A model generated the notes under the pieces. That model made no database searches and had not been told where the DNA came from. It saw only the letters and a program-made list of their open reading frames with translations. From contig JAWKIN010000003.1 of the NCBI GenBank assembly GCA_041394345.1, positions 62,737 to 126,736 on the forward strand: a DNA stretch of 64,000 nt, read 5' to 3'. Position numbers and translations under genes: made by a program. Below are positions 6,823 to 33,742 of the stretch, in pieces. How positions within the stretch are numbered: the first letter of the stretch is position 1; every line of letters begins with the position of its first letter. The stretch comes from Acidimicrobiales bacterium (GTDB taxonomy: Bacteria > Actinomycetota > Acidimicrobiia > Acidimicrobiales > SZUA-35).

Positions 6823-6861
6823 GGTGAAACGAAACATGCAGCTACCGGAGGTGGCTGCATG
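6823..6861 (-). terminator. Hairpin plus T-tract in the nrdJ leader (candidate attenuator)
   Basis: The minus strand reads CATGCAGC-cacctccggta-GCTGCATG followed by TTTCGTTTC. It has an 8-bp stem and lies about 50-90 nt downstream of the NrdR box and about 300 nt upstream of the nrdJ ATG. Confidence 0.35.
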
Positions 6862-6912
6862 TGGCCAAGACTGAACGTTCGATTCTTTCGCCGGGGGGAC
6901 GAAAGCACTGAA

Positions 6913-13998: not shown

Positions 13999-14469
13999 CT
14001 AGGCCAGTTGCTCAGACTGGTCGTCGCGCTTGATCAACGAGAGTTCACGCTCGAAGTCAGACACGTCGGTGAATCCCTTGTAGACACTGGCGAAACGCAG
14101 CGCACCGATGGGGTCGACCGGTCGCAGTAAATCGAGGACTTGCAGACCAACCCATTCCGAGGTGACGTCGCCGTCGACGCCGCGAGCCGCCACTTCTATC
14201 TGGGCCGCGATCTCTTCGAACAGTTCGGGACTACTCGAACGACCCTTCGCCGCCAGATTGAGACCCCGAACAATCGTCTCCCGGGAGAAGGGCTTGCGTT
14301 CACCGGATCGTTTGACCACCATCAACGGAGCGTTTTCATAACGCTCGAACGTGGTGAACCGGGCGCCGCACTTGGAACACTCGCGTCGCCGTCGAATCGA
14401 CGCACCCTCCTCGGACGCACGCGAATCGACCACACGAGTGCCGTCAAAGGTGCAAGAGGGGCAACGCAT
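13999..14469 (-). CDS. nrdR: Transcriptional repressor NrdR (zinc ribbon plus ATP-cone)
   Basis: The 156-aa ORF reads MRCPSCTFDGTRVVDSRASEEGASIRRRRECSKCGARFTTFERYE...LRFASVYKGF and is a full-length NrdR. Confidence 0.95.
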   Translation of the reverse strand: MRCPSCTFDGTRVVDSRASEEGASIRRRRECSKCGARFTTFERYENAPLMVVKRSGERKPFSRETIVRGLNLAAKGRSSSPELFEEIAAQIEVAARGVDGDVTSEWVGLQVLDLLRPVDPIGALRFASVYKGFTDVSDFERELSLIKRDDQSEQLA

Positions 14470-14534: not shown

Positions 14535-15161
14535 TCAATGGAGGTCGCCGGGAATGATGACCTGCTGCCCGGCCATGAGGTCGGCGCCCCCATTTCGGGC
14601 AACGAGCTGCTCGACGATGGGACGAACATCGGCCCCCTGAATCAGCGACGAGGCAATGGCCCAGTAGGTATCGCCCGGTTGGGCCACCACGGTGTATTCG
14701 CCAAGCTGGGCGTCAACCGGCGCGACGGCAACAACTTCGCTTCGAAGGCTGGTGTCAGCGGGCGGGCGGCCTTGCACCGCACTCATGAGGAGAAAGGCTG
14801 CCACCATGGCGCCGAGAACACCGAGCACTCGGCGGTCGAGTTCGCCAACCCAATCGGCGAAGCTACCAAGCGCTGCCACCGGAGTGTCGGGTTGATCGAC
14901 GAACGCCGGCACGCTCGCCAGATGACGATCTGGCCGATGACCCTCGACCCGGGTTGCCGTCCGCGGTGTTATCCGCCGGTCGGGTCGGGGCTGGTGTTGC
15001 CGGGTCTGGTGTTGTCGGGTCTGGGGTGAAGTAGTGCAACCATGAGAATAGTTTCCTCGGGGGGTGTGACGGTCACACCGTGGCGTGGAGGTGACTGTCA
15101 GCGAACAAGGGTTTCTGCCCCACGGGCCCCGCCGACGTATCGGTCGCTCAGTACATGTCAC
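14535..15161 (-). CDS. LysM-domain membrane protein (Rv2719c-like SOS-region gene); start uncertain
   Basis: The C-terminus EYTVVAQPGDTYWAIASSLIQGADVRPIVEQLVARNGGADLMAGQQVIIPG is a LysM domain. It is preceded by a TM segment (VLGVLGAMVAAFLLMSAV) and a basic, Pro-rich N-terminus. It sits between lexA (divergent) and nrdR, as in mycobacteria. The GTG at 15161 is one in-frame candidate start. The ORF track extends to 15356, across the SOS boxes. Confidence 0.7.
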   Translation of the reverse strand: MTCTERPIRRRGPWGRNPCSLTVTSTPRCDRHTPRGNYSHGCTTSPQTRQHQTRQHQPRPDRRITPRTATRVEGHRPDRHLASVPAFVDQPDTPVAALGSFADWVGELDRRVLGVLGAMVAAFLLMSAVQGRPPADTSLRSEVVAVAPVDAQLGEYTVVAQPGDTYWAIASSLIQGADVRPIVEQLVARNGGADLMAGQQVIIPGDLH

Positions 15162-15240
15162 GACTGACACGGTCTCATTCGATTTGGCCCAGGTCTCGCA
15201 GCCAGAGCGAATGAGGTGACGAGGTTTCCGCCCGAGGAAC

Positions 15241-15325
15241 TCGAACCGGTGTTCGATTACCTTATACGAACGCCCGTTCGCTGCCAACTGAAAATCGAAC
15301 AATTGTTTCACGAACAAGCATTCGC
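15241..15325. promoter_or_regulatory. Cluster of four LexA (SOS) boxes in the lexA / LysM-gene divergent region
   Basis: The four boxes are TCGAACcggtGTTCGA (15241-15256, perfect), aCGAACgcccGTTCGc (15266-15281), TCGAACaattGTTTCA (15295-15310) and aCGAACaagcATTCGc (15310-15325). The actinobacterial consensus is TCGAAC-N4-GTTCGA. Confidence 0.85.
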
Positions 15326-15447
15326 TTCTGCCGGAATCTATGGCATACTCACTCACAAGCCGGTTCTTGCCTCATCAGGACCGACCATCCGGTCGAACAC
15401 CTCCACCCGATCCAACACGCCGTGTCCACTACGTAAGGAATGCCCCC

Positions 15448-16089
15448 ATGACTGACCATCGTCTCAGCCGACGACAGCTGGCCATCCTCGAGACAATCGA
15501 GAAGCACATGACCGATCGCGGCTACCCGCCGTCGGTTCGTGAGATCGGCGATGCGGTTGGCCTCTCCTCACCCTCAACGGTGCATTCGCACCTCGGCACG
15601 CTTGAGCGCGAGGGCTACCTTCGGCGCGATCCATCAAAGCCACGCGCCATCGAGGTTCGCTGGGATCCAAACACGGGCGCCCACGACATCGAGCGCCGGC
15701 CGTTCCGCCATGTGCCGCTCGTAGGCTCGGTCGCCGCTGGCACCGACGTGCTTGCCGAACAACACATCGAAGAGACCATCCCGGTCCCCAGCGATCTCAC
15801 CGGCGACGGCGAGTTGTTCATGCTCATCGTTCGGGGCGACTCAATGATCGACGCTGGCATTCTGAGTGGCGACTATGTCGTTGCGAAGGTGCAAAAGACG
15901 GCGAAAGCGGGCGACATCATCGTCGTCGGCATCCCCGGCGAAGAGGCAACCGTCAAGACGTACTCCGGCGAGTCGACCAACAAGGAAATGGTCTTGTTGC
16001 CGTCGAACCCCACCATGGGCCCCATGCATTTCCCCACGACCGATGTCGAAATCTTCGGCAAGGTCGTCACCGTGATGCGGCGGCTCTAG
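15448..16089 (+). CDS. lexA: LexA repressor
   Basis: From ATG 15448 (AAGGAA lies 10 nt upstream) the protein reads MTDHRLSRRQLAILETIEKHMTDRGYPPSVREIGDAVGLSSPSTVHSHLGTLEREGYLRRD...VAAG...RGDSMIDAGI..GD..V. The ORF track starts earlier, at 15340. Confidence 0.95.
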   Translation: MTDHRLSRRQLAILETIEKHMTDRGYPPSVREIGDAVGLSSPSTVHSHLGTLEREGYLRRDPSKPRAIEVRWDPNTGAHDIERRPFRHVPLVGSVAAGTDVLAEQHIEETIPVPSDLTGDGELFMLIVRGDSMIDAGILSGDYVVAKVQKTAKAGDIIVVGIPGEEATVKTYSGESTNKEMVLLPSNPTMGPMHFPTTDVEIFGKVVTVMRRL

Positions 16090-16120
16090 GGCCCCGGGTC
16101 GGCAACGCTTGGCGCACTCC

Positions 16121-17008
16121 CTAGCTTGCTGCTATCGCGTCGCGCTCCTTGGCGTCGCGAGCAGCCTGGGCGATCCGCCGCTGCTCAAGCGATTGGGCGG
16201 CGATCTCGTCAACCTCGCCATCGGTGAAGCCGGCCATTTTACGGAATTGGCGGGCCAGCTTGATCGGTGAGTCGTCTTCCTCGCCCCGGGCGCCGCGGCC
16301 ACTAAAGAGGCCGTCGACGACGCGTTGGAACTCCAGCGCTGCCTTCCGCCGCTCCGGATCGTTTTCGGTCACCGCCCGCAACCAGCGCGACCCCATCTTC
16401 ACATGCGTCACCTCGTCGGCGAGCATGTAGTCCTCGCAATACTCCAGGACGGGGTCGCCAAGGGCGACGCCAAACTCGCGCATCTGGGTAAAGACGTCGA
16501 TGGCAAGCCCTTCGAGCGCACGGTTGACGCCAGCCAGGCGAAACACCGGGTCCTCGTGGCATGCGGCCTCAAACAGGGTCGTCGTCTCGACATACTCGCC
16601 GAGCTCGCCGCCCATATGCTCGGCCAGCTTGATCGAGATCTCGCAGTGGCGCGCCTCGTCCCAGCATTGGCGAGCCATGTCGAGCTTCAGTTCGTAGGGG
16701 ACCTCGTCGGTGCCGAAGTCGAACGCCGTGCGGCCCGCGCCCTCGAGCGCCTGGATCTCGCCGACAAAGATGCCATGCATCCGACGGCGGGAGCGCTCGC
16801 CTGCATCTTCGGCCTCGGGGTCGACGGTTCCCAGTTCGAGCGTGTCACGCTCGTCAAGAAAGCGGGCCTCGCTGTCTTGGCGAGTGAATCGGGCATCGCG
16901 AGCGAGGGCGGATGGTGGAATGTTCTTGCGCACTGGGTCCCCTCCAGGTTCTGGAACAGTGCGCAGCTTAGAACGTTCTCCGGGCTCGACGCCAGGCACG
17001 GGCCCCAA
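16121..17008 (-). CDS. Ferritin-like DUF455 family protein
   Basis: The 295-aa ORF carries FVGEIQALEGAGRTAFDF...LDMARQCWDEARHCEISIKLAEHMGGELGEY...YMLADEVTHVKMGSRWL. Confidence 0.7.
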   Translation of the reverse strand: MGPVPGVEPGERSKLRTVPEPGGDPVRKNIPPSALARDARFTRQDSEARFLDERDTLELGTVDPEAEDAGERSRRRMHGIFVGEIQALEGAGRTAFDFGTDEVPYELKLDMARQCWDEARHCEISIKLAEHMGGELGEYVETTTLFEAACHEDPVFRLAGVNRALEGLAIDVFTQMREFGVALGDPVLEYCEDYMLADEVTHVKMGSRWLRAVTENDPERRKAALEFQRVVDGLFSGRGARGEEDDSPIKLARQFRKMAGFTDGEVDEIAAQSLEQRRIAQAARDAKERDAIAAS

Positions 17009-17030
17009 ACGGGCACACTTAGTGCCGACT

Positions 17031-19432
17031 ATGGGCCCCTATCAACCACTCGGTCTCCCGATCGATGACGTCGCCGACGAGGTGTCCACGGCTATGCGCC
17101 ATGGTGGCGCAGTGATCACCGCCGAGCCGGGAGCGGGAAAATCAACGGTCGTTCCGTTGCTGGCCGCCCAGGCAATCGACGGCACGATCTATCTTTCGGA
17201 GCCTCGCCGAGTCGCCGCTCGGGCAACGGCTCAGCGCTTGGCCGAGCTCGCCGGCACCGAGGTCGGCGATGGGGTCGGACTCATCATGCGGGGCGAGCAC
17301 CGACGCTCGGCGCGCAGCAAGATCGTCGTGATGACTGAGGGCGTGTTGGCCCAGATCATTCGCTCGGAGCCCGACCTTCCTGGGGTAGGCGCCGTCATCT
17401 TCGACGAGTTTCACGAACGCAGCCTGCATGCCGACCTAGGACTAGCGATGAGTGTCGAGGCTCGCGATGCGCTCCGACCCGACCTCGCATTGGTGGTGAT
17501 GTCGGCCACCATCGACGCCATCCCGATTTCGGGCCTACTGGGTGGCGCCCCGATTATTGCGGCTGCTGGTCGAACGTTTCCCGTCGAAACCGTTTGGTCC
17601 AATCGGGTACCTGAAGCGCGGTGGGCCGGTCATGTGGCGCAGCTCACCGCCACCGCAGCCGCCCAGGTTCGCGGCAGTGTCATTGTTTTGTGCCCGGACG
17701 TCGAGGATCAGCGACGTCATCGGCGAGCTGGCGCGGCTCGGTCTGTCCGGCGACGGACTTCATGGCGGTAGCGACGCACCAACCCAACGCCGCCTGCTGG
17801 GCCCGACGACGAGCCAGAGAATCATCGTGGCCACGTCGGTCGCCGAGACCTCGCTCACGATCCCAAACGTCGAGGCCGTCGTCGATGGCGGTCTAGCGAA
17901 GGGCCGCGTACGACCCCCGGACAGGACTCGGCCGACTCGAAACCGGCTTTGTAACGAGGTTCAGCCGACCAGCGGCGGGGCCGAGCCGGCCGACTCTCGC
18001 CGGGGTCTGCTTCGAGCGTGGTCGGAGGAGGATCATCGGCACCTCGACAACGCCATCTCCCGAGGTGCTCAGCGGCGACCCGCTCGAGCTCGGCTTCGCT
18101 CTGGCCCGGTGGGGAGACCCCTACGGCGTGTCGCTTCCTCTACTCGATCACCCGCCAGCGCATCGACTCGATGCGGCGTTTGCCCGCCTCGCCGACCTCG
18201 GACTCACCACCGAGACCGGTGCAGTGACCCCCTTCGGACATGCGGCCGCCACACTCGGGGTCCACCCGCGAGCGGCTGCGCTTCTGCTTCGCGCCGCGCC
18301 GACGCCTTCGCTCGCGACTGCTGCGCTCGCGGCTGCGGTGCTCGACTCCGACCAGTATCCACGGTCAGACGACTTCGAGGCGGAGGTCAGGCTGGCGAGC
18401 AAGACACTTCAGAGAGAAGCCGACCGACTCGCCAAAGCAGCCACATCGAATTCAGAACCTCCCGTCGCACGACGTACCGGTACGAGCGATGCACCAACCG
18501 ATCTAGCCAACCTGGCCGCCGCGGCCTGGCCCGACCGTGTCGCATTGCGACGCGACGAGACCGAGCGCTACCTGCTGGCCACTGGACGCGAAGTAAAGCT
18601 CCGACGCAACAGCCCGCTGCTCGGTTCCGAAGCACTCGTGGTGGTCGATGCTGATGCCGATGCAACCGCAGGGTTTGTGGCCCGAGCGCTCCCCCTGAGT
18701 CGTGGCGACGCAATCAACAGACTCGAGCCTCTCGCCGCAGAGCGAAACGAGGTCAGGTGGGATCAACCTCGCGGCCGGGTCGTGGCCGAGCAGGTCATTG
18801 CCTACGGCTCGCTTGTTTTCCGCCGGCGCCCCGACCCCGAGCCTGCCCCCGGACTCGTTCGCTTGGCGATCCACGACGCAGTCAGACGCAGCAATCTCGA
18901 ACTCCTTCGATGGACCGATGCGGCACTCGCCACACGAGCACGCTTGCAGTGGCTCCACCAACAAGATCCGTCAGGGTGGCCCGACGTGAGCACGTCATGC
19001 CTGGTCGACCGACTCGATGAGTGGCTCGAGGTCGGTGGGAGCCAAAACATCACTGCGATTGGCGAGATCCCTGTTGCCTCGTCATTGCTTCGACTTCTCG
19101 ACTGGAAGCAGCGCGACGAACTGAAGCTCCTCGCCCCCGCTTCACTTGCGACGCCAGACGGGAGAAGTGTCGCTGTGAGCTACGAAAGTGGCGAGCCCGT
19201 GTGGGCGGTTCGTTTGCAGTGGCTCCTCGGCCTCGACACGCACCCGACGGTCGGACCAAGTCGATCGCCGATCACCATCGAATTGCTGTCACCGGCCGGT
19301 CGACCAGTGCAGCGGACCCGTGATCTACCCGGGTTTTGGCGCGGCAGCTATCAGGCGGTTCGGTCCGATCTACGCGGACGGTATCCGAAGCACAATTGGC
19401 CAAGCGATCCGCTCAAGCCCGACGAACGGTAG
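17031..19432 (+). pseudogene. hrpB: ATP-dependent RNA helicase HrpB (DEAH-box), at least 3 frame changes
   Basis: From ATG 17031: ...AVITAEPGAGKSTVVP...VIFDEFHERSLHADLGLA...VVMSATID (ORF 16710..). RIIVATSVAETSLTIPNVEAVVDGGL appears in ORF 17542... The HrpB C-terminal domain is in ORF 18065..19432. Confidence 0.85.
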
Positions 19433-19494
19433 ACATCGGTACGTCTCAATTGCCCGACGCTCCGATGTGAGCCGGCCTGCCGAGAAGGATCGCC

Positions 19495-20571
19495 TTACAG
19501 CAGCTTGCGCAGTGCCTCATAGGTACGCTCAATCGACTCGCGGTGAAGGTGTTCGTGCGGCGTGTGAGCAAGTGTCGGATCGCCGGAGCCGAAGTTGGTC
19601 GCCGGCACGCCGAATTCGGCGAACCGCGCGACGTCGGTCCAACCGAGCTTCGCCTCGACCCGTAGATCGGAGCCATCACGCAACGCCTTGAGCAGTGGGT
19701 GGGTTAGCGACGGCGGGCAGGCCAGTGAGCTGTCGACGACAGTGAAGGTGTCGCCGTCGTCCATATAGGGCCCGACCAAGTCACGAAGGAACGCTTCTGC
19801 CTCGGCAGCGGATCGATCAGGAGCGTAGCGATGGTGAATCCGCAGCCTTACCAGATCGGGAACGACGTTTCCGGCCACGCCACCTTCGACGGTGACCGCC
19901 TGCACTGCTTCTCGGTAGGTGCACCCGTCAATAGTTGGGGTGCGAGCTTCATAGGCCGCCAGTGCATCGAGCAGCGGGCCCAGCCGATGGATGGCGTTTC
20001 GCCCCATCCATGGTCGGGCGGTGTGGGAACGCTTGCCCGCGAGCGCAATCTCGACCCGCATCGCACCCTGACACCCGGCTTCAATGTGGCCGTCGGTCGG
20101 CTCCCCCAGAATGGCGGCGTCGCCATGCAGTAGGTCGGGTCGCTCGGCGTAGATCTCGCGCAACCCATTGTGTTCTTGGGGCACCTCTTCACGGGCGTAG
20201 AACACGAAGGACAGATCGACCTTCGGTTGTGGCACGGTGCGTGCCAAATGCAAGAAGACTGCGAGGCCGCCCTTCATGTCGGCGGACCCAAGCCCCCACA
20301 AGGTGTCTCCCTCAATGCGTGCCTTGGCGTTTGAGCCGCCAGGAAGGTCGTCCGCATAGGCGACGGGAACGGTGTCGGTGTGGCCGCACAGGATGAGCCG
20401 CTGGGCTCGCCCAAGCATCGTGCGAGCGACCAGGTTGTCTCCGACCCGGTCGACGGTGAGATGGTCGTAGCTCCGCAGGTCGGCCTCGAGCCAATCGACA
20501 AAGGCCGTCTCCTCGAAAGAAACCGATGCATGGTCCACTAGTTCAGCGGTGAGCGCGAGAAGATCAGTCAT
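19495..20571 (-). CDS. dapE: Succinyl-diaminopimelate desuccinylase (M20 peptidase)
   Basis: The 358-aa intact ORF carries LILCGHTDTVP, SADMKGGLAV and EPTDGHIEAGCQGAMRVEI. It lies adjacent to a dapC-type aminotransferase. Confidence 0.85.
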   Translation of the reverse strand: MTDLLALTAELVDHASVSFEETAFVDWLEADLRSYDHLTVDRVGDNLVARTMLGRAQRLILCGHTDTVPVAYADDLPGGSNAKARIEGDTLWGLGSADMKGGLAVFLHLARTVPQPKVDLSFVFYAREEVPQEHNGLREIYAERPDLLHGDAAILGEPTDGHIEAGCQGAMRVEIALAGKRSHTARPWMGRNAIHRLGPLLDALAAYEARTPTIDGCTYREAVQAVTVEGGVAGNVVPDLVRLRIHHRYAPDRSAAEAEAFLRDLVGPYMDDGDTFTVVDSSLACPPSLTHPLLKALRDGSDLRVEAKLGWTDVARFAEFGVPATNFGSGDPTLAHTPHEHLHRESIERTYEALRKLL

Positions 20572-21691
20572 CGGTGCCTTCGAGGGAAACGCCGACTCGG
20601 GCGGCTGCGACGCTCACCTGCTCGTCTGGTTGGACGACCGCGATGCGCACATGGCCGGCGCCCGCTTCGCCGTAAAACTCACCTGGGCTGACGAGAATGC
20701 CCGCGTCCTCAGCAAGGCGCTGGGCAAACGCCCACGCATCACCGTCGGGAGCGGGAACCCACAAGTAGAAACCTCCGCCGGGGAGGCTGGCCTCCACACC
20801 AAGCGCAGCAACCAGTTTTTGCATCAGCACCAGCCGATCCCAGTACCGAACTCGCTGTTCGGCGACATGCGTTTGGTCGCCGAAGGCCGCTATCGATGCG
20901 TGTTGGATCGGGCCGGGCATGAGGAAGCCGGCGTGCTGACGCACCTCGCCGAGATAGTTGATGATCTCGGGGTCGCCGGCGTAGAAGCCCGACCGGCCCC
21001 CTGCCAAGTTGGATCGCTTCGAGCGAATGCACTGCGACGACGCCATCGAAGCCGTGCTCAAGGATGGACGCACGGCGGCCCGTCCCACGTGAACTCGATG
21101 TAGCACTCATCGGAGAATACGGGCACGTCGTTGGCGCGGCCCCAGGCGGCCGCAGCTTCGAGATCGTCGAGCCCACCGGCCGGAGTTCCCTGGCGTGTTG
21201 ACCCAGAGGCAAAGGGCTCGGGCGGCGTCGGCCGGGTCGATCGCGGCGAGGTCAATCCTCCAGTGCTCGTCGACGGGTACGGCGACGGCGCGACAGTTCC
21301 CCAGCTGGGCCCCCATGGCATAGCTCGGGTAGCTGATAGCGGGGTAGAGGACCGTGTCTCGTTCGGGCGTCCGGAGACGGAGCCAGTGGGGTAGGCCGGC
21401 GACGAACTCTTTGGTGCCGATCGCGGCCCGCACATCGGCGGCGCCCAGGTCGGTCCCCACGAGCGTGTTGAGCCAGGTGGCTGCGGCCTCTCGGAAGGCC
21501 GGCGTGCCGATCGAGGGTGGGTAGCCGCGCTCGGCGTTTGAGTTGGCCAGTGCCTCGACGACGAGGGGTGGTGGCGGATCGAACGGGGTGCCGATGGAGA
21601 GGTCGACCACCGATCCGTAACGCTCAACGGCGAGCGCCTTCAGCCCGTTGAGCCGGTCATAGGGGTAGGGAGGGGGGACAAATCCAGCCAT
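20564..21691 (-). pseudogene. dapC: Class I/II aminotransferase, succinyldiaminopimelate transaminase-like (2 frame changes)
   Basis: The N-terminal ORF 21107..21691 reads MAGFVPPPYPYDRLNGLKALA...DLSIGTPFDPPP...YPPSIGTPAFREA. The middle piece appears in ORF 21058..21627 (DVPVFSDECYIEF). The C-terminal ORF 20564..21106 carries GGFYLWVPAP...ILVSPGEFYGEAGAGHVRIA. Confidence 0.75.
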
Positions 21692-21719
21692 CCGGCGAGC
21701 CTACCCCCGCCACCCCCTT

Positions 21720-21771
21720 CCGAAGTGGCCACTTCTACGCCCATTTCTGGGCGTAATCGCAACCACTTCGG
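21720..21771. repeat. REP-like palindromic element, copy 1
   Basis: The sequence is CCGAAGTGGCCACTTC-T-ACGCCCATTTCTGGGCGT-aatcgcaa-CCACTTCGG. It contains the 14-bp perfect palindrome GAAGTGGCCACTTC (21722-21735) and the hairpin ACGCCCA-tttc-TGGGCGT (21737-21754). The outer arms CCGAAGTGG / CCACTTCGG also pair. Confidence 0.7.
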
Positions 21772-21795
21772 CGGTTCGCTGGCGCCGGGCGACCA

Positions 21796-22208
21796 CTAGG
21801 AGGTGTAGCTGACGACTTCAAACTCGATTGCGTCGGCATCGTCGAAGTAGAAGCGACGACCGGGTTCGTAGTCGCCGTGGTTGTATGGCTCGAATCCGGC
21901 GGCAATGACCCTGGCCTCCACGGCGTCTAGGTCGTCGACGACAATCCCCAAGTGGTTGAGACTGCCGGGTACGGGTCGGCGCTCATGGCTCCGGCGGTGT
22001 CGTCGTGCGTGTAGACGGCGAGATAGGACTGACCATTGCCCGGCTCACCCACATGAACCGTGTAGCCGCCGGCCAACGACGGACCTGTCCAACGGACTTC
22101 CCATCCAAACAAGTCGCAGAGAAGCGAGGCCGTCTTGTCTGGATCTGACACGGTGACGTTGGCGTGTTCGAGTACTGCTGTCGATTTCTTCTCGTGTTTG
22201 TTGGTCAT
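21796..22208 (-). pseudogene. VOC (glyoxalase/bleomycin-resistance/dioxygenase) family protein, one frame change
   Basis: ORF 21927..22208 reads MTNKHEKKSTAVLEHANVTVSDPDKTASLLCDLFGWEVRWTG.... After a shift it continues ...LNHLGIVVDDLDAVEARVIAAGFEPYNHGDYEPGRRFYFDDADAIEFEVVSYTS, with the stop at 21796. Confidence 0.7.
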
Positions 22209-22215
22209 GGTGATG

Positions 22216-22246
22216 TTGCTAATATCTCAAGCAATGTTGAGGTCAA
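22216..22246 (-). promoter_or_regulatory. SoxR-type promoter: -35 TTGACC, 19-bp spacer containing the SoxR palindrome, -10 TAGCAA; drives the VOC gene
   Basis: The minus strand reads TTGACC-TCAACATTGCTTGAGATAT-TAGCAA-catcacc-ATG. This compares with the E. coli soxS promoter TTTACC-TCAAGTTAACTTGAGGAAT-TATACT. The half-sites are ACCTCAA / CTTGAG. The ATG of the VOC gene is 7 nt after the -10, so the transcript is probably leaderless. Confidence 0.7.
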
Positions 22247-22722
22247 GTGGAAACGCAAGAAAGCCAGCAAAAAGCGACACGTTGAGCATCGGCGATGTCG
22301 CGGCCAGAACAGGCCTGGCCGTGTCGGCGATCCGCTTCTACGAGGACCGAGGGCTCATTCGGGCAATCCGGTCGCCGGCGGGCCATCGCCTCTTTCGCCG
22401 GTCGACGATTCGCCGGTTGTCGTTCATTCGAATCTGCCAACAACTCGGCTACTCGCTCGCCGAGATCGAGTCCCAGCTTGAGCAACTGCCAAACGGCCGC
22501 AACCCGACGGAGGCCGACTGGCAAGGCTCGCGTCGCGCTTCGCTCTCGAACTGGACGAGCGGATCGCTGGCCTAGCGCTGCTTCGAGAAAAGCTCGATGG
22601 CTGCATTGGGTGTGGTTGCCTGATGATGGGCGCCTGCAAGCTCTACAACATCGACGATGGCGCAAAGCGCGTACGGCACCGGTCCCCGCTACCTGCTCGG
22701 CGACTCTCCCCCGCCCCAGTGA
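22234..22722 (+). pseudogene. soxR: Redox-sensitive MerR-family activator SoxR (at least 2 frame changes)
   Basis: The protein reads LSIGDVAARTGLAVSAIRFYEDRGLIRAIRSPAGHRLFRRSTIRRLSFIRICQQLGYSLAEI. The [2Fe-2S] motif CIGCGCLMMGACKLYN appears in a second frame (ORF 22623..). A third frame gives GTGPRYLLGDSPPPQ with its stop at 22720-22722. Confidence 0.85.
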
Positions 22723-22739
22723 GCCCCCGTCCGGGCTCG

Positions 22740-22821
22740 GAAGTGGCCACTAGTACGCCCATTTCTGGGCGCAGAAGTGGCTGCTTTTACGCCCATTTCC
22801 GGGCGCAGAAGTGGCCACTTC
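22740..22821. repeat. REP-like palindromic elements, copies 2-3 (tandem, 34-bp period) plus a terminal palindrome
   Basis: The units are GAAGTGGCCAC-tagt-ACGCCCATTTCTGGGCG-ca, GAAGTGGCTGC-tttt-ACGCCCATTTCCGGGCG-ca and GAAGTGGCCACTTC. These are the same modules as at 21720-21771. They lie in the convergent gap between soxR and dedA. Confidence 0.75.
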
Positions 22822-22836
22822 GCGAGCGGGGTGGTG

Positions 22837-23423
22837 TTAGTGGCGGCGGATGGCCCGCACGACCTCGATGAGACCAGTCATACTCAGCGCCGCCGCAGGC
22901 GCAGTAGGAACGCCGTGGTGTGGTTGAACCGCTGACCGAAAACAAAGCCAGGCCCGCCGCATACGTCGCCCAGATAACGACAGCCACAATGTCCCAACGA
23001 AGAAACCAGCTGCGATACGGCTGCTGGGTCGCCCCACAAGTAAAGGTCAGCGCCGTGCGCCCGCCAGGAATGAAGCGTGCCGTGATCAGCAACACGCCAC
23101 CGCGCTGCTTGATCTGCCTCCCCACCGTTTCAAGTCGCCGCTTACCCTTCTCGCCTCGAAACAGCAGCCGGCCGACCACCCCGGATGCCCGCTGGCCGAG
23201 AAGATGCGCGATCGAATCACCTGCGGCGGCACCAATTACTGCGACGAGCACCACGAGCGCGATCGACAGATTGCCGGTGCCCGCCGCCGTCCCCAAGAAT
23301 CACCATTGTCTCGCTCGGCACAACGGGTAGAACCGAGTCCAGGAGTGCCACACCGAGGATGGCGAGATAGAACCAAGGGCTCGTCGAGATCGTCTCGAGC
23401 GAGTCGAAAAGGGAGTGCATCAC
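22837..23423 (-). pseudogene. DedA/VTT-family membrane protein (frame changes)
   Basis: ORF 23217..23423 reads MMHSLFDSLETISTSPWFYLAILGVALLDSVLPVVPSETMVILG. ORF 22787..23296 carries IGAAAGDSIAHLLGQRASG...LITARFIPGGRTALTFTCGATQ. The likely C-terminus is in ORF 22837..23037 (...AALSMTGLIEVVRAIRRH). Confidence 0.75.
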
Positions 23424-23443
23424 CGGCGCAGCGTAGCGTCGGC

Positions 23444-24917
23444 CTACTCCGGCACGGTGGCGGTCACAAAGTCGCTTAGGCGACTCGCCGACGCCGGCTC
23501 GAGTCGGGCCCGGAGCCGCATGCCGTCGTCTTCGGTCGTCTCGACCAACACCTCGCCTTCCCGGTGCAGGGCAGCGAGCATGTCACCTCGGGCCCACGGG
23601 ATGAAAAGCTCGTAGATACTCGATTGCGCCCGTATCCGATCGCCAATGGCAAGCAGCAGCTTGTCGATGCCTTCGCCGGTCTGAGCCGAGACAGCGACCG
23701 ATCCGTCGTTGTGGCTCAAATGCCATGGCAGATCAGTGGCAATATCGGCCTTATTGAAGACCATGAGCTCGGGAATATCTTTTGCCCCGATCTCAGACAA
23801 CACTTCGCGGACCGCCTCGATATGGCCACCGACGTCGGTGCCGGCGCCGTCGATCACGTGGATCAGCAGATCGGCTTCGGCCGCAACTTCGAGCGTCGAT
23901 TTGAACGCTTCAACCAGTTGGTGAGGGAGTTTCTTGACGAACCCAACGGTGTCGGTAAGCAGGATCGTTTCGCCGCCCGGCAACTGCGCCTGCTTCGTGG
24001 TCGGGTCGACGGTCGCGAATAGCTGGTCTTCCACCTTCACATTTGACCCCGTGAGCGCATTGAGAAGGGTCGACTTACCGGCGTTTGTGTAACCGACGAT
24101 CGACACAACCTTGTAGGGCGATCGAGTACGGGCCTTGCGTTGGTTCGCTCGGCGGTCGGCGATGTTTGCGAGATCTCGCTCAAGTTTGTGGATGCGGCGG
24201 ACGAGCCGGCGCCGGTCGACCTCAAGCTGTGTCTCGCCGGGACCGCGTGTGCCAATGCCACCGGCCTGCTGCGAGAAGTCCTTCTTGCCGCGAAGGCGCG
24301 GCAGTCGATAGCGCAGCTGAGCAAGCTCAACTTGCGCCTTACCTTCGGCTGATGTTGCGTGCTGAGCGAAGATGTCGAGGATGACACCCGTGCGGTCAAG
24401 CGCCGTTCGTTTGAGAATGCGCTCGAGGGTGAACTGTTGGGCGGGCGTGAGCACGTCATCAAAGACGACGGTGTCGACGTCATGGGTCAGACACGCCTCA
24501 AGAATCTCCTGCACCTTGCCCTTGCCGACATAGGTCGACGCATGTGGTGAGTCGCGCTTCTGTGTGATGCGCTCGACGACGTCGGCGCCCGCGGTGTCAA
24601 TGAGCAGCTCGAGTTCGTCGAGCGACTGCTCCATCTGGAGTTCGGTGGTCCGCCCTTGCAGCAACCCGACGACGACAATTCGCTCACGGAAACCGCGATC
24701 AAGGAAACCACCTTCGACCGTTGCACCAAACTCGCCGAAGGCACCGCGGTGGTGTCGTTTGGATCGAGGTGCAGATCGCCGGCCCCGTCGTCGGCCCCGT
24801 CATCGGACCCGGTGAAGATGAACTCATCGCCGTCATCGACGAAATCGCTCGAGTCGAAGCCAACGCCGTCAGGGTTGTCGTCTGGTTCGAGACCCCAGTC
24901 GAGTTTGTCGTAACCAT
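23444..24917 (-). pseudogene. hflX: GTPase HflX (core intact; acidic N-terminal extension needs frame changes)
   Basis: ORF 23444..24664 carries VSIVGYTNAGKSTLLNALTG..DQLFATVDPTT..LTDTVGFV..FNKAD. Upstream, FGATVEGGFLDRGFRERIVVVGLLQGR continues in frame. An acidic segment (GYDKLDWGLEPDDNPDGVGFDSSDFVDDGDEF) sits in another frame, reachable from ATG 24917 if one base is restored. Confidence 0.85.
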
Positions 24918-25717
24918 GGGAAAACCGAGAGCGAAGCGATGTGGTAGGTCGCTGGGCCGGTGAGGTGGACGGTGTCGGTGACCTCAACGACGGCTTCGAC
25001 CTCCAGGCATTTGAACGGTGACCGCTCCATGCGCCAGTCCCCAGTTGGCAGCAGCAACCGCGGCGGCACAAGCGCCCGAGCCACAGGCATCGGTGATTCC
25101 CGACCCTCGTTCCCATACATAGAGCGACAGATGGTCGGGCCGATCAACTTCAATGAAATGCACGTTGATGCCGCTCGATAGCTGGCTTCGACAACGGGCC
25201 TGACAGCAGCCAGATCGACGGCTGCTGGATCATCGACCAGCGCGACGAGGTGGGGATTGCCCATGTCGACGCTGGCCTGGCGGATGGGCGAAACACCAGT
25301 GGAGTCCCATCGGTCGAAGTCGCCAGGACCAGGCTTGGCCGCACCCATGTCCACCCGGACCTGACGGGTGTCGCCCTCCGCTGGCTGGATCTCGAGTTGA
25401 CGAAGACCGGCGTCAGTGGCGATTCGCATCGTCGTCGCACCGAGTCCAGCGTGGTCGGCCAATGCCTGGCCGAGGCAACGAATGCCGTTGCCAGAAATTT
25501 CGGCCCTACTGCCATCGGCGTTGTAGAGCACCATGGACCAGTCGGCCTCGGTGTCGCCTGGGGCTTTTGTCGCCACAATCAGTCCGTCCGCGCCGACACC
25601 CAGATGCCGGTTGCACCAGTGGACAGCGTCATCGGCCGTCAAGGAGATCTCGGGTTCGATGGCAATCAGGAAGTCGTTGCCCAGACCGTGGTGTTTTGTA
25701 AGCGAAATCAAAGTCAA
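24869..25717 (-). pseudogene. dapF: Diaminopimelate epimerase DapF (at least 2 frame changes)
   Basis: ORF 24869..25807 carries LTKHHGLGNDFLIA...GADGLIV...YNADGSRAEISGNGIRCLG...VDMGNPHLV. The C-terminal third is scrambled, but ...VHLTGPATYHIA is recovered. The candidate start is TTG at 25717. Confidence 0.85.
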
Positions 25718-25746
25718 GAAGTGCAGTGTCGCAGCAAATGGGGCTG

Positions 25747-26721
25747 TTAGCTCGAAATTATTGCACCGACCGACCGGTTCACGTCGGCAGGTTCGCCCTT
25801 GGCCCAAATCGCCTGCGCCCGCTCGACCAAATCGGGCGCCGTCGCCGGCAGCCAGTGGATGCGCGGATCGCGCCGGAACCAGCGTTGTTGGCGTCTCGCA
25901 AATCGGTGCGTGCGCCGCTTGGCTTCATCGAGCGCCTCGTCCAGCGTGCAATGACCTTCCAAATGCTTGATGAGCTCGCGATAGCCGAGGGCTTGACGGG
26001 CTGGCCGTGACAGGTCGGTCCTGAGCAGCGCCTCGACTTCGGCGAGGAAGCCGGCCGCCATCTGGTGTTCGTATCGCTCGTCGATTCGGCGATCCATCAG
26101 CTCCCTATCGATCTCCAGGCCGATCTGCACGAAGCGGCTGGGCGGATAGGCATCGACACCGGGACCAAAGCTCGAGAAGGGACGACCGGATCCGACGCAC
26201 ACCTCAAGGGCTCGCATGACCCGGCGCCGGTTGTTCGGTTCCATTTTGGCCGCTGCCATTGGGTCGAGTGCGTGGAGTCGTTGCCACAGTTTCTCGGTGT
26301 GTGGTTCGCTCTCGAGCTCCAGAACAACCTCGGGGTAGGTCCCCGGCAGCTCGAACGCATCGACGATCGAGCGAATGTAAAGCCCAGTGCCGCCGGCGAG
26401 GATAAACGGGGTACTGGTCGCGTCGAGCGACTCGATGACGGGTCGGATCGCATCGTTGTAGGTCGCCACGCCACACTCTTCACTCGCGTCGACAATATCT
26501 ATGCCGTGGTGCACGACGCTGAGTCGCTCGGCCTCTGTCGGCTTCGCCGTTCCGATATCCATCCGGGCATAGACCGCCATGGCGTCGGCTGAAACTATGT
26601 GGGCTTCCGCCGTCGCTTGGGCGAGCGCAAGGGCGAGGCCCGTCTTACCCGAGGCCGTTGGCCCCAGCACGACAAGCGGCGGGCGATTGTCTGGTGTCGT
26701 CGACGCAATCTGCTCGGTCAC
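25747..26721 (-). CDS. miaA: tRNA dimethylallyltransferase MiaA
   Basis: This is the C-terminal 325 codons of ORF 25747..27423: VTEQIASTTPDNRPPLVVLGPTASGKTGLALALA...IVSADAMAVYARMDIGTAKP...ILAGGTGLYIRS...ARRQQRWFRRD. The GTG start at 26721 overlaps the stop of the upstream gene (GTGA). Confidence 0.9.
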   Translation of the reverse strand: MTEQIASTTPDNRPPLVVLGPTASGKTGLALALAQATAEAHIVSADAMAVYARMDIGTAKPTEAERLSVVHHGIDIVDASEECGVATYNDAIRPVIESLDATSTPFILAGGTGLYIRSIVDAFELPGTYPEVVLELESEPHTEKLWQRLHALDPMAAAKMEPNNRRRVMRALEVCVGSGRPFSSFGPGVDAYPPSRFVQIGLEIDRELMDRRIDERYEHQMAAGFLAEVEALLRTDLSRPARQALGYRELIKHLEGHCTLDEALDEAKRRTHRFARRQQRWFRRDPRIHWLPATAPDLVERAQAIWAKGEPADVNRSVGAIISS

Positions 26722-27423
26722 GGGACCAACAGCTCGGCCAGCAGGTAGTGCTCTAAGCGGGCAGGTTTGGATCGCGGCCATAGGCCTCGTAGAAGCGAAC
26801 CGCGTCATTGCCGGATGACGCTGGATGCTTCGATGGCGATCGCCAGGTCGAGGTGCCGGTCGGCGATGATCGTGTGGCGAGGCTCGAGCCAGCCGGTCAC
26901 GACGCCAGCGTCGACGATAAGATTGGCAGTGTGGCCGACCGTGACAGCGCACGGATCGGCAGACGAGGGCCGGCCCTGTGACCACAGCTCGATCAGCCGA
27001 TCGAGTGAGTAGCGGCGGAACGGCTCCGGCAAGGCCGTCGGGTCGATGGTGGTTGCTTCGATTGCGACCGCCAGCTGGTTCAACCATCGACTTCGTCGGC
27101 GGCACCGGTACCGCATGGATTCGCTGCAGCTCACGGCCGGCGAGTTCCGCTAGGCCACCTATCTCACCGTGCCGTTCGGGCCGATCAGCACTGAGGCCCG
27201 CTGGCGCGTCGAGAACGATCCATCGGCCGTCAACTGCGACATCACTCCCCCATGTCGCAGGATCACCGACGATGATGCGGCCGATGCGGCTGGCCTCCTC
27301 GGCGGATGAGCACGGATACGCAATCTGCCGCTCACCGATCCACCGGTTGGTCGCGGCATCGAACTCGAACAGCGCGTCGTCGATGATCGAGGGAAGGTCG
27401 GTCTCGGTGACGGGTTCGGGCAC
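26719..27423 (-). pseudogene. Aminoglycoside/choline-kinase-type phosphotransferase family protein (frame changes)
   Basis: The N-terminus of ORF 25747..27423 reads ...WIVLDAPAGLSADRPERHGEIGGLAELAGRELQRIHAVPV. ORF 26805..27134 carries VTVGHTANLIVDAGVVTGWLEPRHTIIADRHLDLAIAI, the kinase catalytic-loop region (H.D...N expected, H.A..N observed, followed by G..D....D..DLA). The tail DAVRFYEAYGRDPNLP / RLEHYLLAELLVP is in two further frames. Confidence 0.6.
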
Positions 27424-27479
27424 GGGTCCAGGCTAGTGGTCGGTGGCGGCGGGACGGCGGGCGACCCCGCTACCGACGC

Positions 27480-28220
27480 CTACGCTCGACTTCGCGGAAA
27501 CTGCCCGACCAGTTCTACAAGGGCGTCGGTGACGCCAGGGGGATCGACGACCATGTGGAGGTGTTCGCCCCTCACCTCGCCCACCACCCAGCCTTCGGCC
27601 ACCGCACGATCGTGCGAGGGCCGGTACATCTCGCCCATGGCCAAATAGCCGAGGCCAATCGAGGGTGGAAGCCGCGGCGCCGGAATCGGCTGGTCGAAAA
27701 TGGATCGAGGAACACAATGCGCCTCGCTGAAGATGCGTCGTCTCGCCGCCTCGTCGGGCAGCATGTCTTCGACCAGCGACCCCCACCAGCGATACCACGG
27801 CGGCAAATACCCGTCGGGTCGGATCATGGCATCGAGCATCGGCGCGAGCGGAAGATCCTCCTCGACGGGCGAGCGACCGTCGGCGGGAAATCGGCCATTG
27901 ACCAGCACCACGCCGGCCACGTCGGCACCCCGCTCCACGAGCATCGAGGCCACCAGGGGTAGCCGGGGACAGCTCGCCGAGTGGCCGACGATCAGAACGT
28001 TTTGATACTGGTCCTCGGGCAACGCATCTGCCACTTCGCTCGCCCACCGCTCGACGACGTCGGTGTCGTCGATTAGGGTCGGGACGGCACGGCGACCAAG
28101 GCCCTATCGCCTCGGGATTCCAGCACCGTCGCGACATCGATCCAGGTCTCCGGGACCAAACAGGAAGCTCGGTACCAGCAGCCAGGTCCGTGGCGAGGAG
28201 TTGTCGTTAGGTGGCGTCAC
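27480..28220 (-). pseudogene. Alpha/beta-hydrolase fold protein (2 frame changes)
   Basis: ORF 27480..28034 carries NVLIVGHSASCP (nucleophile elbow). The N-terminus from GTG 28220 (VTPPNDNSSPRTWLLVPSFLFGP / ETWIDVATVLESRGDRALVAV / DDTDVVERWASEV) is spread over three frames. Confidence 0.55.
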
Positions 28221-28317
28221 AGGTCACGTTCGGTTGGGGAGCTGAGGCGATGAGCGAGCACGGCGAACCGCTCCTGTGACCCTAGTCACTTTGTCGTGGC
28301 GAAGCTTAAAACTGACG

Positions 28318-28345
28318 GAGGTCGCCAGCGTTCGCTGGCGACCTC
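28318..28345 (-). terminator. Intrinsic terminator-like hairpin downstream of ino1
   Basis: GAGGTCGCCAGCG / CGCTGGCGACCTC are 13-nt complementary arms. On the minus strand they are followed by CGTCAGTTTTAAGC. Confidence 0.5.
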
Positions 28346-28380
28346 GTCGGTGGATTCGAAATGGTTGGCGCCGTTGGCGA

Positions 28381-29683
28381 CTAACCGGCTTCGGAGTGCG
28401 TGACTGGTTCCTCGCCCATCCATTCACGCAGGGTGTTCTTCAGCTTGGTTTGTTGGATGAACAGGTCTTGTTCGGCCGGCTCGACACCAGCTGCCTGCGG
28501 AGCCTTGAGGAAGAAGCTGAGCCACTCCTGCACGCCGGATTGACCGGCGAGCGGCGAGGTCCATGAACAGCGCCAGATCGAGCACGATTGGGGCGGCAAG
28601 GATTGAGTCACGGCAGAGGAAGTCGATCTTGATCTGCATGGGGTAGCCCATCCAGCCATAGATGTCGATGGCGTCCCATCCCTCCTTGTTGTCGCCGCGT
28701 GGTGGGTAGTAGTTGATCCGCACGACGTGGTCGATGTTGCCGTAGAGGTCGGGATAGGTGTCGGGCTGCAGGATGCCATGGAGCACACCGAGCTTCGACT
28801 CTTCCTTGGTCTTGAAGTTGGCCGGATCGTCGAGGACTTCGCCGTCACGGTTGCCAAGAATGTTGGTGGAGAACCAGCCCCGCAGACCGAGCATCCGGGC
28901 CTTGAGGCCAGGGGCGATCATCGTCTTCATCAGCGTTTGGCCGGTCTTGAAGTCTTTGCCCGCGATCGGAACGCCGAGTGCGGCGGAAAGCTCGAGCATG
29001 CAGGGCAGGTCAGTCGAAAGGTTTGGTGCGCCATTGGCGAACGGCACGTGGGACTGAAGGGCGGCGTAGACGTAGATCTGCGATGGGGAGATGTTGTCGT
29101 CGTTGTCCTTGAGACCCTGCTCAAAAGCAGCAACGGTGTCATGGACGGCCGATGGCGTCTGGAAGGCTTCCGTCGAACCACACCAGACCATGACCAGGCG
29201 GTCGCAGCCATTGTCTTCGCGGAACTTCTCGATGTCAGCCATGAGCGCCATGGCTTGGTCCCACTTGTTGTCAAGCTGCTTGACGCGCTTGCCGTCGAGA
29301 CGAGACACCCACTTCTGATCGAACACGGCCTCCATGGCCGTGATGCCCTCGAGCTCGGCCGAGATCGGCGCAAGGTCGCGCTCTTCGAGTACACCGGCGG
29401 CACGTGCGGCCTCAAGTGCGTTGGACGAGATCGGGTCCCAGCCACCGAAGACGATGTCGTCGAGTGAGGCAAGTGGGGCGAAGTCTTTGATGAGCGGGTT
29501 GCGACCTTCGGAACGCTTGCCGAGACGGATGTGGGCCATCTGGCTGATCGAGCCGATTGGGGCGGTCCCCGCGGAACGGGCCTGCAAAACGCCGGCCATG
29601 AAGGTGGACGACACGGCGCCCATGCCGGGCGTCAGGATGCCGAGTTTGCCAGTTGCCGGCGCAATTGTGAGAGATTCAGTCAT
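28381..29683 (-). pseudogene. ino1: myo-Inositol-1-phosphate synthase (one frame change near the 3' end)
   Basis: From ATG 29683: MTESLTIAPATGKLGILTPGMGAVSSTFMAGV...VMVWCGSTE...SQIYVYAAL...NGAPNL...GKDFKTGQTLMKT...WFSTNILGNRDG...DSILAAPIVLDLALFMDLA. The C-terminus GQSGVQEWLSFFLKAP...LREWMGEEPV is in ORF 28381..28857. Confidence 0.9.
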
Positions 29684-29718
29684 GGCGAAGATTCTAAAGC
29701 AACCCGAAACTGATGTAG

Positions 29719-29731
29719 GCTTCACTGAAGC
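29719..29731. promoter_or_regulatory. 13-bp perfect palindrome GCTTCAcTGAAGC in the ino1/LysR divergent region (candidate LysR-type site; contains T-N11-A)
   Basis: This is the only strong dyad in the 74-bp intergenic gap 29684-29757. TTCACTGAAGCAA fits the formal T-N11-A pattern. Confidence 0.35.
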
Positions 29732-29757
29732 AATACTTAACAATTAGGCAAGGTGAC

Positions 29758-30636
29758 ATGGCCTACGATCCGCTCCACCTCCAACTGACGACGCAACATC
29801 TCGACTACTTGGTTGCCGTCGATGATCACCAAACATGGGCCCTCGCGGCGGCGAGCTGCGGAGTGAGCCCGTCGGCGCTGAGTCAGGGACTGTCCGAGCT
29901 CGAACGCCGGCTTGGATTAGCGCTCTTCGACCGGGTCGGGCGAAAGCGAGTGCTCACGGCCAACGCCGCCGAGGTGCTGGCCTATGCCCGTCGGGTGGTG
30001 GCCCAGACCCACGACCTCGAGCGCTGGGCCGACGCGAGCAAGAGCGGCGAAACCGGGGCCCTTCGCGTTGGCATGATCGACGTTGCTGCGGTCGCTCATT
30101 TTCCGGACCAGTTGCACGCCTTCCGAAATCGCTTCCCCGACGTCGACCTCCGACTCTCGGTATCCGGATCAACATCGCTCGTCGACCAGTTGCGCTCAGG
30201 CAACCTTGATGTGGCGATCGTCGTGGAGCCGATCGTGCCGCTGCCCGATCTGACGATGACGCCATTGTTGTCCGAGCCGCTCGCTGTCTACGCGCCGGAG
30301 GGACAGTCGGGTCGCAAGCCAGGCGACTGGGGACCGTGGGTGACGTTCCCGTCGTCGAGCCATAGCCGGCAGTGGATTCGACAGGAGCTCGCTGCGCTTG
30401 GGGCGTCCTTTGAGGTGGTCGCCGAGTCGCATCAGCCCGAAGTACTGCGCGAGATGGTGCGCCTGGGGATCGGCTGGACCGTGCTCCCCGTGTCGCAGGC
30501 TGAGGCTGGGCCGGGCGCAATCACTCGAGCTCGACAGCGGCCGCTGTTCAAACGTCGGTTGGTCATCGCCCGACGGAGTGGTGCGCTCCCCCACCCCGGC
30601 GTAGACCAGTTGATCTCGCTAATCGCCACCACCTAA
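29758..30636 (+). CDS. LysR-family transcriptional regulator
   Basis: The 292-aa intact ORF has an N-terminal HTH (LDYLVAVDDHQTWALAAASCGVSPSALSQGLSELERRLGLALFDRVGRK) and a LysR substrate-binding domain. It is divergent from ino1. Confidence 0.9.
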   Translation: MAYDPLHLQLTTQHLDYLVAVDDHQTWALAAASCGVSPSALSQGLSELERRLGLALFDRVGRKRVLTANAAEVLAYARRVVAQTHDLERWADASKSGETGALRVGMIDVAAVAHFPDQLHAFRNRFPDVDLRLSVSGSTSLVDQLRSGNLDVAIVVEPIVPLPDLTMTPLLSEPLAVYAPEGQSGRKPGDWGPWVTFPSSSHSRQWIRQELAALGASFEVVAESHQPEVLREMVRLGIGWTVLPVSQAEAGPGAITRARQRPLFKRRLVIARRSGALPHPGVDQLISLIATT

Positions 30637-30685
30637 CCGCACCTGGGGTCCGACGCTTCCGTACTTCGTACTCGCCAGCCCCGCA

Positions 30686-30732
30686 GTTCGGCCCACCGTT
30701 CGGCCCACCGTTCGGCCCACCGTTCGGCCGCC
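30686..30732. repeat. 12-bp tandem repeat GTTCGGCCCACC x3 plus one degenerate unit
   Basis: The units lie at 30686-30697, 30698-30709 and 30710-30721, followed by GTTCGGCCGCC. They sit in the convergent intergenic gap between the LysR gene and azlD. Confidence 0.9.
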
Positions 30733-30860
30733 AAACCGACAGACCCACCGGCCGAGCCCGCTACGACATTTTTGACAACGGGTGTTCTGGGCCTGGGCTC
30801 GAAGCGCGAGTCGCTCGTGCACGACGATGGCGCCGTCGAGCCAGATCGACGCTGGGCATA

Positions 30861-33660: not shown

Positions 33661-33742
33661 CCAGACAGACTAGAGCTGAGAGCGCCGTCGCGCTCCAGTC
33701 AAGCGTCACCACTTCCTGGCGACGCGGTGGCACGATGGGTCG

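Follow-up and report, generated by a model that had tools for sequence, protein, structure and literature searches.

Repeat arrays between hflX and dapC

We analyzed a stretch of 64,000 nt from the metagenome-assembled genome of an uncultured member of the Acidimicrobiales (contig JAWKIN010000003.1 of assembly GCA_041394345.1), hereafter referred to as the window, and we focused on a palindromic repeat located between the genes hflX and dapC. On the minus strand, the gene order of this locus is hflX, dedA, a first repeat array, soxR (encoded on the opposite strand), a gene of the VOC/glyoxalase family, a second and shorter repeat element, dapC and dapE. The repeat unit is 34 nt long and is composed of a 14-nt palindrome, A (GAAGTGGCCACTTC), and of a hairpin, H (ACGCCCA-TTTC-TGGGCG), of about 20 nt. 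The unit was found at two loci of the window, as A-H-A' at positions 21720-21771 and as A-H-A-H-A at positions 22740-22821, with the following parts:

22727..22834, plus strand: array A-H-A-H-A with its flanks, between soxR and dedA, whose 3' ends converge
22740-22753, 22774-22787 and 22808-22821: palindromes A of the array
22755-22772 and 22789-22806: hairpins H of the array
21720..21771, plus strand: dapC-proximal element, A-H-A' (1.5 units), covariance model score of 62.7 bits
21722-21735: palindrome A of the dapC-proximal element
21737-21754: its hairpin H (loop TTTC at 21744-21747)
21756-21769: its degenerate A'

The palindrome GAAGTGGCCACTTC is exact at 21722-21735 and 22808-22821, and it presents two mismatches at 22740-22753 and three at 22774-22787. 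When up to two mismatches were allowed, it was matched three times in the 64 kb, against 0.20 matches expected from shuffled sequences. The hairpin ACGCCCATTTCTGGGCGT was found at 21737, 22755 and 22789 with zero, one and two mismatches, respectively (three matches against 0.05 expected), and none of 100 shuffles reached three matches. Tandem Repeats Finder reported the array at 22730-22819 with a period of 34 nt and 2.6 copies (score 131). Neither fuzzy matching (up to nine mismatches in 32 nt), nor nhmmer, nor the covariance model revealed a third locus in the window. The original prediction, which was made from the letters of the window, described one composite element that brackets the soxR-VOC pair and occurs nowhere else in the 64 kb, with two and a half tandem units on the dedA side. 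These statements all hold, and the two loci are direct copies of one repeat. The element on the dapC side, which it had counted as a single occurrence, is present but amounts to 1.5 units, with its degenerate A'.

Both loci are predicted to fold into stable structures. The dapC-proximal element forms a 52-nt hairpin (−29.8 kcal/mol on the plus strand and −39.6 kcal/mol on the minus strand; z-scores of −5.3 and −7.2). The array forms a single long imperfect hairpin together with the 13 nt on either side of it (22727-22739 and 22822-22834), with fold energies of −66.4 and −70.6 kcal/mol and z-scores of −6.6 to −8.5. The strand preference of these hairpins is inconsistent, as fold energy favours different strands at different sites, and the events behind a bias of G.T wobbles toward one strand are too few for it to be used. 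No Rfam family was matched at E ≤ 1 within 20500-24000, and a scan for promoter-like sites found none in the arrays.

The hflX-dapC interval in related Acidimicrobiales

We compared the locus to its close relatives L001 (GCA_037968895.1) and L002 (ERZ23877680), whose HflX proteins are 90-91% identical to that of the window. The homology detected by blastn extends as far as 23459, where hflX ends, and starts again at 21708, which is 17 nt upstream of the ATG of dapC. The interval in between is a variable slot whose content differs in each of the three genomes:

21709..23458, no strand: variable slot of the window, without DNA homology to L001 and L002; contains dedA, the array, soxR, VOC and the single element
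Window, from hflX to dapC: dedA, array, soxR, VOC, A-H-A'
L001, from hflX to dapC: A-H-A, DUF2178, HTH_3, two ABC-transporter genes, A-H-A
L002, from hflX to dapC: single A with spacer, one small open reading frame (ORF), A-H-A

The arrays of L001 are located at 11463-11515 (8 nt past the stop codon of hflX) and at 14100-14152 (21 nt before the ATG of dapC), and those of L002 are located at 11462-11479, as A(+H), and at 11914-11966, as A-H-A. In both relatives the palindrome A is AAAAGCGGCCGCTTTT and the period is 35 nt. The copies of the array lie only at the two borders of the hflX-dapC interval, and none was found elsewhere in the 21 kb of L001 or the 12 kb of L002. In all three array-bearing genomes, the synteny breakpoint on the dapC side is situated about 4-15 nt from the outer A. 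The units of each genome are all on one strand, and the sites at the two ends of the cargo are directly oriented.

Three relatives at a greater distance differ from this arrangement: hflX and dapC are 27 nt apart in L018, overlap by ATGA in L025 and are 4 nt apart in L027, and no repeat was found at the hflX-dapC junction of these genomes. The same syntenic site thus presents three different cargos and three empty sites. The repeat-free empty sites, together with the arrays found around other cargo, imply that the slot was opened inside an ancestral hflX-dapC junction. The original prediction had considered that the repeats could be scars of the insertion of the soxR-VOC pair as a cassette, in which case relatives lacking the pair might show an empty site with one repeat. 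The interval is indeed replaced or absent in relatives, which supports the idea of a cassette, but the empty sites are free of repeats and the close relatives without soxR-VOC carry arrays around other genes. We also considered that the repeats travel with soxR-VOC. This was rejected: the nearest soxR-VOC pairs elsewhere (74-75% amino acid identity; L014-L017) are found between other genes and without repeats, which indicates that the repeats are a feature of the slot rather than of the module.

Two short-read contigs from independent assemblies break at this locus: L002 ends 57 nt into dapC (at 12023) and L026 breaks 14 nt upstream of dapC, and both breaks lie no more than about 60 nt from the dapC-proximal array. 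Since the k-mer of the assembler exceeds the repeat in length, such breaks are to be expected if strains with different cargo co-exist, a hint of variation between strains at the junction.

Evolution of the palindrome and of the repeat units

The three genomes contribute seven units in all, which can be aligned gap-free, and their arrays are homologous. Hardly any change in the palindrome A separates L001 from L002, even though the DNA identity between these two genomes is only 81-84%. Relative to these genomes, the A of the window differs at two symmetric pairs of positions (A:T to G:C and C:G to T:A): the palindrome stays a palindrome despite the differences between genomes, and the copies of each genome share one variant. 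Intermediates with G.T pairs are present, including the middle A of the window array (GAAGTGGCTGCTTT), which is a chimera whose left half is of the window type and whose right half is of the relatives' type. Paired positions account for 93.8% of the cells of the alignment, against 33-72% when the partner is slid, and a 16-bp A:A stem is retained in all six A-H-A elements. With so few events, the covariation in A is suggestive rather than conclusive.

The copies within each genome share both their A variant and features of H, which indicates concerted evolution. The strong hairpin of H is peculiar to the window, and only the T-rich center of H is common to the three genomes. In addition, H points in the opposite direction with respect to dapC in both window arrays from the H of the relatives, which fits an inversion between palindromic A units. 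We also observed a degenerate inverted unit in L001, to the left of the dapC-side array (14065-14100), which consists of GAAGTGGCGGTGAAT followed by aggccccaaaaaacgcgctc. The half-site GAAGTGGC of this unit corresponds to the window-type variant, and it may be that both variants of the palindrome are old.

Genes of the slot and quality of the assembly

The genes and promoter-like features in and around the slot of the window are as follows:

20564..21691, minus strand: dapC (succinyldiaminopimelate transaminase), conserved right flank; one frameshift at ~21106
21698..21703, minus strand: TAGGCT, putative −10 box of a leaderless-type promoter, 6 nt upstream of the ATG of dapC
21796..22208, minus strand: VOC/glyoxalase-family gene (cargo); best homologues 74-75% identical, with PF00903
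22225..22242, no strand: SoxR-box-like palindrome TCTCAAGCAATGTTGAGG, read from the sequence, in the VOC/soxR divergent region
22234..22722, plus strand: soxR (cargo), divergent from VOC; at least two frameshifts
22839..23421, minus strand: dedA-family gene, 23 nt downstream of hflX; several frameshifts, weak DedA matches
23444..24892, minus strand: hflX, conserved left flank; 5' part out of frame in the assembly

The gene names given in the original prediction were borne out by protein families: SoxR scored 165 bits against TIGR01950 (cut-off of 116.9), DapC_actino was the best family for the aminotransferase dapC and the homologues of the VOC gene contain PF00903, the match to DedA being weak. 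The palindrome TCTCAAGCAATGTTGAGG resembles the soxS operator of E. coli, CCTCAA-N6-TTGAGG, and its position and this resemblance suggest that SoxR may control the VOC gene. We considered a foreign base composition of the cargo, which was not seen (GC-content of 0.61 against 0.63 for the window). Upstream of dapC, the sequence TAGGAT is found at the position equivalent to the TAGGCT of the window in L001 (14161-14166), L002 (11974-11979) and L026 (3-8). The motif TAGGMT is therefore located 6 nt before the ATG of dapC in every slot-bearing genome, and it is absent from the outgroups. This putative leaderless-type promoter of dapC seems to have arrived along with the arrays.

Frameshifts were found in all four genes VOC, soxR, dapC and dedA, with that of the VOC gene lying near 21950-21975. 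More broadly, in the 19 kb that surround the slot (15000-34000), roughly one conserved gene in two changes frame relative to its orthologue in L001. These changes are situated in dapC (~21106), VOC (~21960), soxR (~22520 and ~22660), dedA, dapF (~25000-25200), the 5' part of hflX, azlC (~31575), ino1 (~28530) and hrpB (17000-18100). Several of these genes are presumably essential. The frame changes are a better fit to indel errors of a long-read assembly than to real decay into pseudogenes, and caution is therefore called for regarding single-base differences between repeats and regarding the period of 34 nt (ATTTC) as opposed to 35 nt (ATTTTC).

Two other regions of the window deserve mention. 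Its left end harbors an ArdA antirestriction gene (264-1235, minus strand) and the ORF of an IS3-family transposase (1563-2438, plus strand), adjoined by two ORFs (3716-5104 and 5541-6908) into which a class II ribonucleotide reductase is divided, and positions 264-2438 may represent the edge of a mobile element. Further on, ORFs that weakly match beta-propeller and galactose-binding domains, and that probably encode a repetitive surface or secreted protein, contain a 271-nt tandem repeat (9650-10426; 2.9 copies, 92% matches).

Proposed recombination junctions and possible transcriptional hairpins

There is, in our estimation, about an even chance that these lineage-specific arrays, which resemble bacterial interspersed mosaic elements (BIMEs) and Neisseria intergenic mosaic elements (NIMEs), delimit a cassette-type variable slot and act as recombination junctions, probably also serving as insulators. 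The family is composed of 34-35-nt units, each with a perfect palindrome A of 14-16 nt and a spacer H of 19-20 nt with a T-rich center, which form short arrays (A-H-A or A-H-A-H-A). In the common ancestor of this small clade of Acidimicrobiales, an array would have entered the junction of an otherwise contiguous hflX-dapC(-dapE) string. The arrays would afterwards have been the place where accessory genes were acquired, exchanged and probably inverted, and the resulting block of cargo, soxR-VOC in the window, would lie between arrays in direct orientation. We infer that the palindromic A units are the junctions, and exchange could proceed by recombination between copies, through incoming DNA that carries an array, or through some protein that recognizes A. 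The long A:A hairpins would also insulate the flanking housekeeping genes transcriptionally.

Several observations weigh against arrays that act as junctions. The gene dedA adjoins hflX with no array in between. No recombinase, integrase or HUH gene was found in or beside the slot; a Pfam scan of 20 window ORFs, which did not cover every small ORF, returned no recombinase, and the gene maps of L001 and L002 contain none beyond a gene similar to REP-associated tyrosine transposases (RAYT), which has a different cognate palindrome. The covariation score of A was reached by 32 of 500 shuffles, with only three array-bearing genomes and few independent events. The scans with the full models spanned the window and the related loci, and a low-copy dispersed family remains compatible with them. 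Finally, the same pattern would arise if insertions at a permissive site had simply divided an ancestral tandem array that played no active part.

The last point is part of an alternative that we regard as possible but doubtful, in which the arrays are purely transcriptional hairpins (bidirectional terminators, insulators or mRNA-stabilizing structures) and the ancestral array was split by unrelated insertions with no role in recombination. The hairpins are very stable (z-scores of −5 to −8.5), five of the six sites adjoin the 3' end of a gene or separate genes that are co-directional or convergent, and a new −10-like box follows the dapC-proximal array. The variant of the relatives, A4-GC-rich palindrome-T4, has the shape of a bidirectional terminator. 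However, the window variant keeps a GC-rich hairpin and has lost the A and T tracts: the T4 tract is present in L001 and L002 and missing in the window. A scan for terminator-like sites showed no enrichment (3, with 1.2 expected from shuffled sequences), and a single one of them is inside an array. Moreover, the array of L001 at 14100-14152 is situated between divergently transcribed genes, and terminators seldom keep one 16-nt sequence across sites and species (here ~81-84% identical) or change in concert. A purely terminator-type role, terminators being among the readings that the original prediction had listed first, is possible, but it fits poorly with the window variant and with the array between divergent genes in L001.

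A more specific form of recombination can also be imagined, although we consider it unlikely. The A-H-A elements would be the sites of a previously undescribed cassette-exchange system of Acidimicrobiia, in which an unlinked sequence-specific enzyme inserts, excises and inverts cassettes at one fixed site of the chromosome. The enzyme could be a recombinase or of the HUH type, and A could be recognized as a duplex or as a folded single strand. The function of such sites would be analogous to that of integron attC sites, or to the recombination proposed for dRS3 repeats, with an unrelated sequence. To our knowledge, integrons are essentially unreported in this phylum.

If the arrays are junctions for swapping genes, they would constitute a compact natural cassette slot bounded by structured repeats, in an uncultured and environmentally abundant actinobacterial lineage and outside the integron and Neisseria paradigms. 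The motif RAAGYGGCYRCTTY at a spacing of 34-35 nt would then represent a handle to search metagenomes for the enzyme and for strain-level gene flux. Even if these are mere insulating hairpins, the apparent scar of one module is an older feature of the locus, around which relatives carry other cargo.

Searches for further copies of the repeat and for RAYT-like genes

The original prediction also listed, as one possibility, a family of the type of repetitive extragenic palindromes (REP) or MITEs, and it suggested a search for a RAYT/TnpA(REP) gene. Under this hypothesis, the two loci would be just two members of a dispersed REP/REPIN-type family mobilized by a RAYT, a Y1 HUH transposase. The anatomy of the elements is REPIN-like (two palindromes, a short spacer and a long hairpin), the tandem clusters are BIME-like, and a gene for a RAYT-like protein (PF01797; 57 and 48 bits against NF047646) lies 6-7 kb away from the slot in both L001 and L002. 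We nevertheless find this hypothesis very unlikely. No copy was detected outside the slot in the 64 kb of the window or in the 21 kb and 12 kb of the relatives (33 kb together), and nhmmer and the covariance model found zero such copies across 175 kb of window and related loci. We further scanned one genome for each of 185,579 species (GTDB) and the metagenomes of the Joint Genome Institute (JGI) for the exact 20-nt core CTNNTACGCCCATTTCYGGGCG, which is not modelled on the relatives' variant. These scans yielded only seven (genomes) and four (metagenomes) singletons, which we attribute to chance or to coding sequence: all were found in coding or unrelated contexts, and none had the palindrome. 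Viral contigs and plasmids contained no copy of the element, and a literature search for both palindromes returned nothing relevant.

Both scores of the RAYT-like proteins are below the NCBIfam cut-off of 80 for NF047646, and their genes lie in the following regions:

L001, 3234-4248, and L002, 2281-4306: RAYT-like Y1 gene of ~300 amino acids, between azlD and lysR

They are flanked by other palindromes: GTACACGTACCAGGTACGTGTAC in L001, which differs from A, and the GTAG-tagged GTAGGTATCGGATACGTA in L002, which forms a doublet and is found in two more copies. On this ground we rejected a link between the RAYT-like genes and the arrays. No RAYT was detected in the window by tblastn, and the orthologous site (30636-30861) is empty. 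A 12-nt tandem repeat (GTTCGGCCCACC, 3.7 copies) is present at this site, at 30686-30729. As for the tags of REP sequences, GTAG is found beside one of the 11 copies of A (window 21736-21739, minus strand) and CGTC beside another (L001 14132-14135), with neither tag at the remaining nine.

The least probable explanation is that A is the operator of a homodimeric DNA-binding protein (such as a regulator of dapC and its neighbors, or a nucleoid protein) whose co-evolution would account for the symmetric changes. In its favor, both the sequence and the structure of A, a perfect palindrome of 14-16 bp, are conserved, and the dapC-proximal copy overlaps the expected −35 region of the putative leaderless-type dapC promoter. 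Against it, one would not expect a promoter at the window array, which has a converging 3' end on either side, no candidate regulator is common to the three slots, the 34-35-bp spacing fails to place the sites on one face of the helix, and outgroups regulate the same genes without such a site. Type III antitoxin repeats, CRISPR, parS and LexA or SoxR operators were dismissed on anatomy and context.

Comparison with known repeat systems

We compared the arrays with several systems of structured repeats. Bidirectional intrinsic terminators also present GC-rich hairpins past stop codons, and the relatives' variant has A and T tracts around its GC core. They differ from the arrays in that a single sequence is kept here across sites and species, in the T-tract missing from the window variant and in the copy located between divergent genes. 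Elements of the IS200/IS605 type, or similar to palindrome-associated transposable elements (PATE), share with the slot the similar same-strand hairpins at both ends of a segment and the absence of terminal inverted repeats, and a Y1 HUH gene is found near the slot in the relatives. In contrast to these elements, the slot contains no TnpA or TnpB, no conserved cleavage tetranucleotide was identified, and the hairpins that flank the Y1 gene belong to another family. The dif site of Xer recombination (including pdif) is a 28-bp sequence with XerC/XerD arms arranged as 11-6-11, whereas A is a perfect palindrome of 14-16 bp without an asymmetric 6-bp center.

The layout of integrons is closer. As with attC sites and clusters of attC sites lacking integron integrases (CALIN), directly oriented sites with an imperfect palindrome enclose tightly packed cargo; those of any one genome are homogeneous, and it is their structure that is under selection. 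However, the core RYYYAAC ... GTTRRRY is absent from all arrays on inspection, and we found no IntI, attI or Pc, nor any tyrosine recombinase in the gene maps of L001 and L002 or among the 20 window ORFs (Pfam). The palindrome A is also perfect, with no obvious extrahelical bases, and the cargo includes multi-gene blocks of mixed orientation.

The REP, BIME and REPIN families are likewise extragenic palindromes that form doublets with a spacer, and hence long hairpins, as well as tandem clusters. Their copies are homogeneous within a genome and lineage-specific between genomes (PMC3116915, PMC3337134), as are the arrays described here. In REP sequences, the palindrome bears a conserved tag, GTAG or CGTC, at one of its ends (PMC3733652). 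The arrays present no conserved tag of this kind, and neither dispersal nor a cognate RAYT was seen in the sequences searched.

NIMEs are composed of dRS3 repeats separated by RS spacers and have been proposed as substrates for homologous or site-specific recombination (PMC1797815). The arrays share with them the short inverted-repeat units with spacers, the intergenic and syntenic location and an array length that varies between genomes. As with NIMEs and minimal mobile elements, the genes at one syntenic position also differ between genomes while the flanks are conserved. The dRS3 repeat is ATTCCC-N8-GGGAAT, a sequence unrelated to A (GAAGTGGCCACTTC or AAAAGCGGCCGCTTTT); spacers measure ~50-150 bp in NIMEs, against 19-20 nt here; and NIMEs are found in hundreds of copies and in another host phylum, when our arrays were seen at one slot only. 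NIME arrays had not been observed outside Neisseria as of 2007 (PMC1797815).

The defining sequence features of NIME/dRS3, REP/REPIN and attC are all missing from these arrays, and we therefore assign them to none of these families. In their behavior, the closest analogues are NIME/dRS3 with minimal mobile elements and REP/BIME/REPIN, and integron attC sites are similar in layout.

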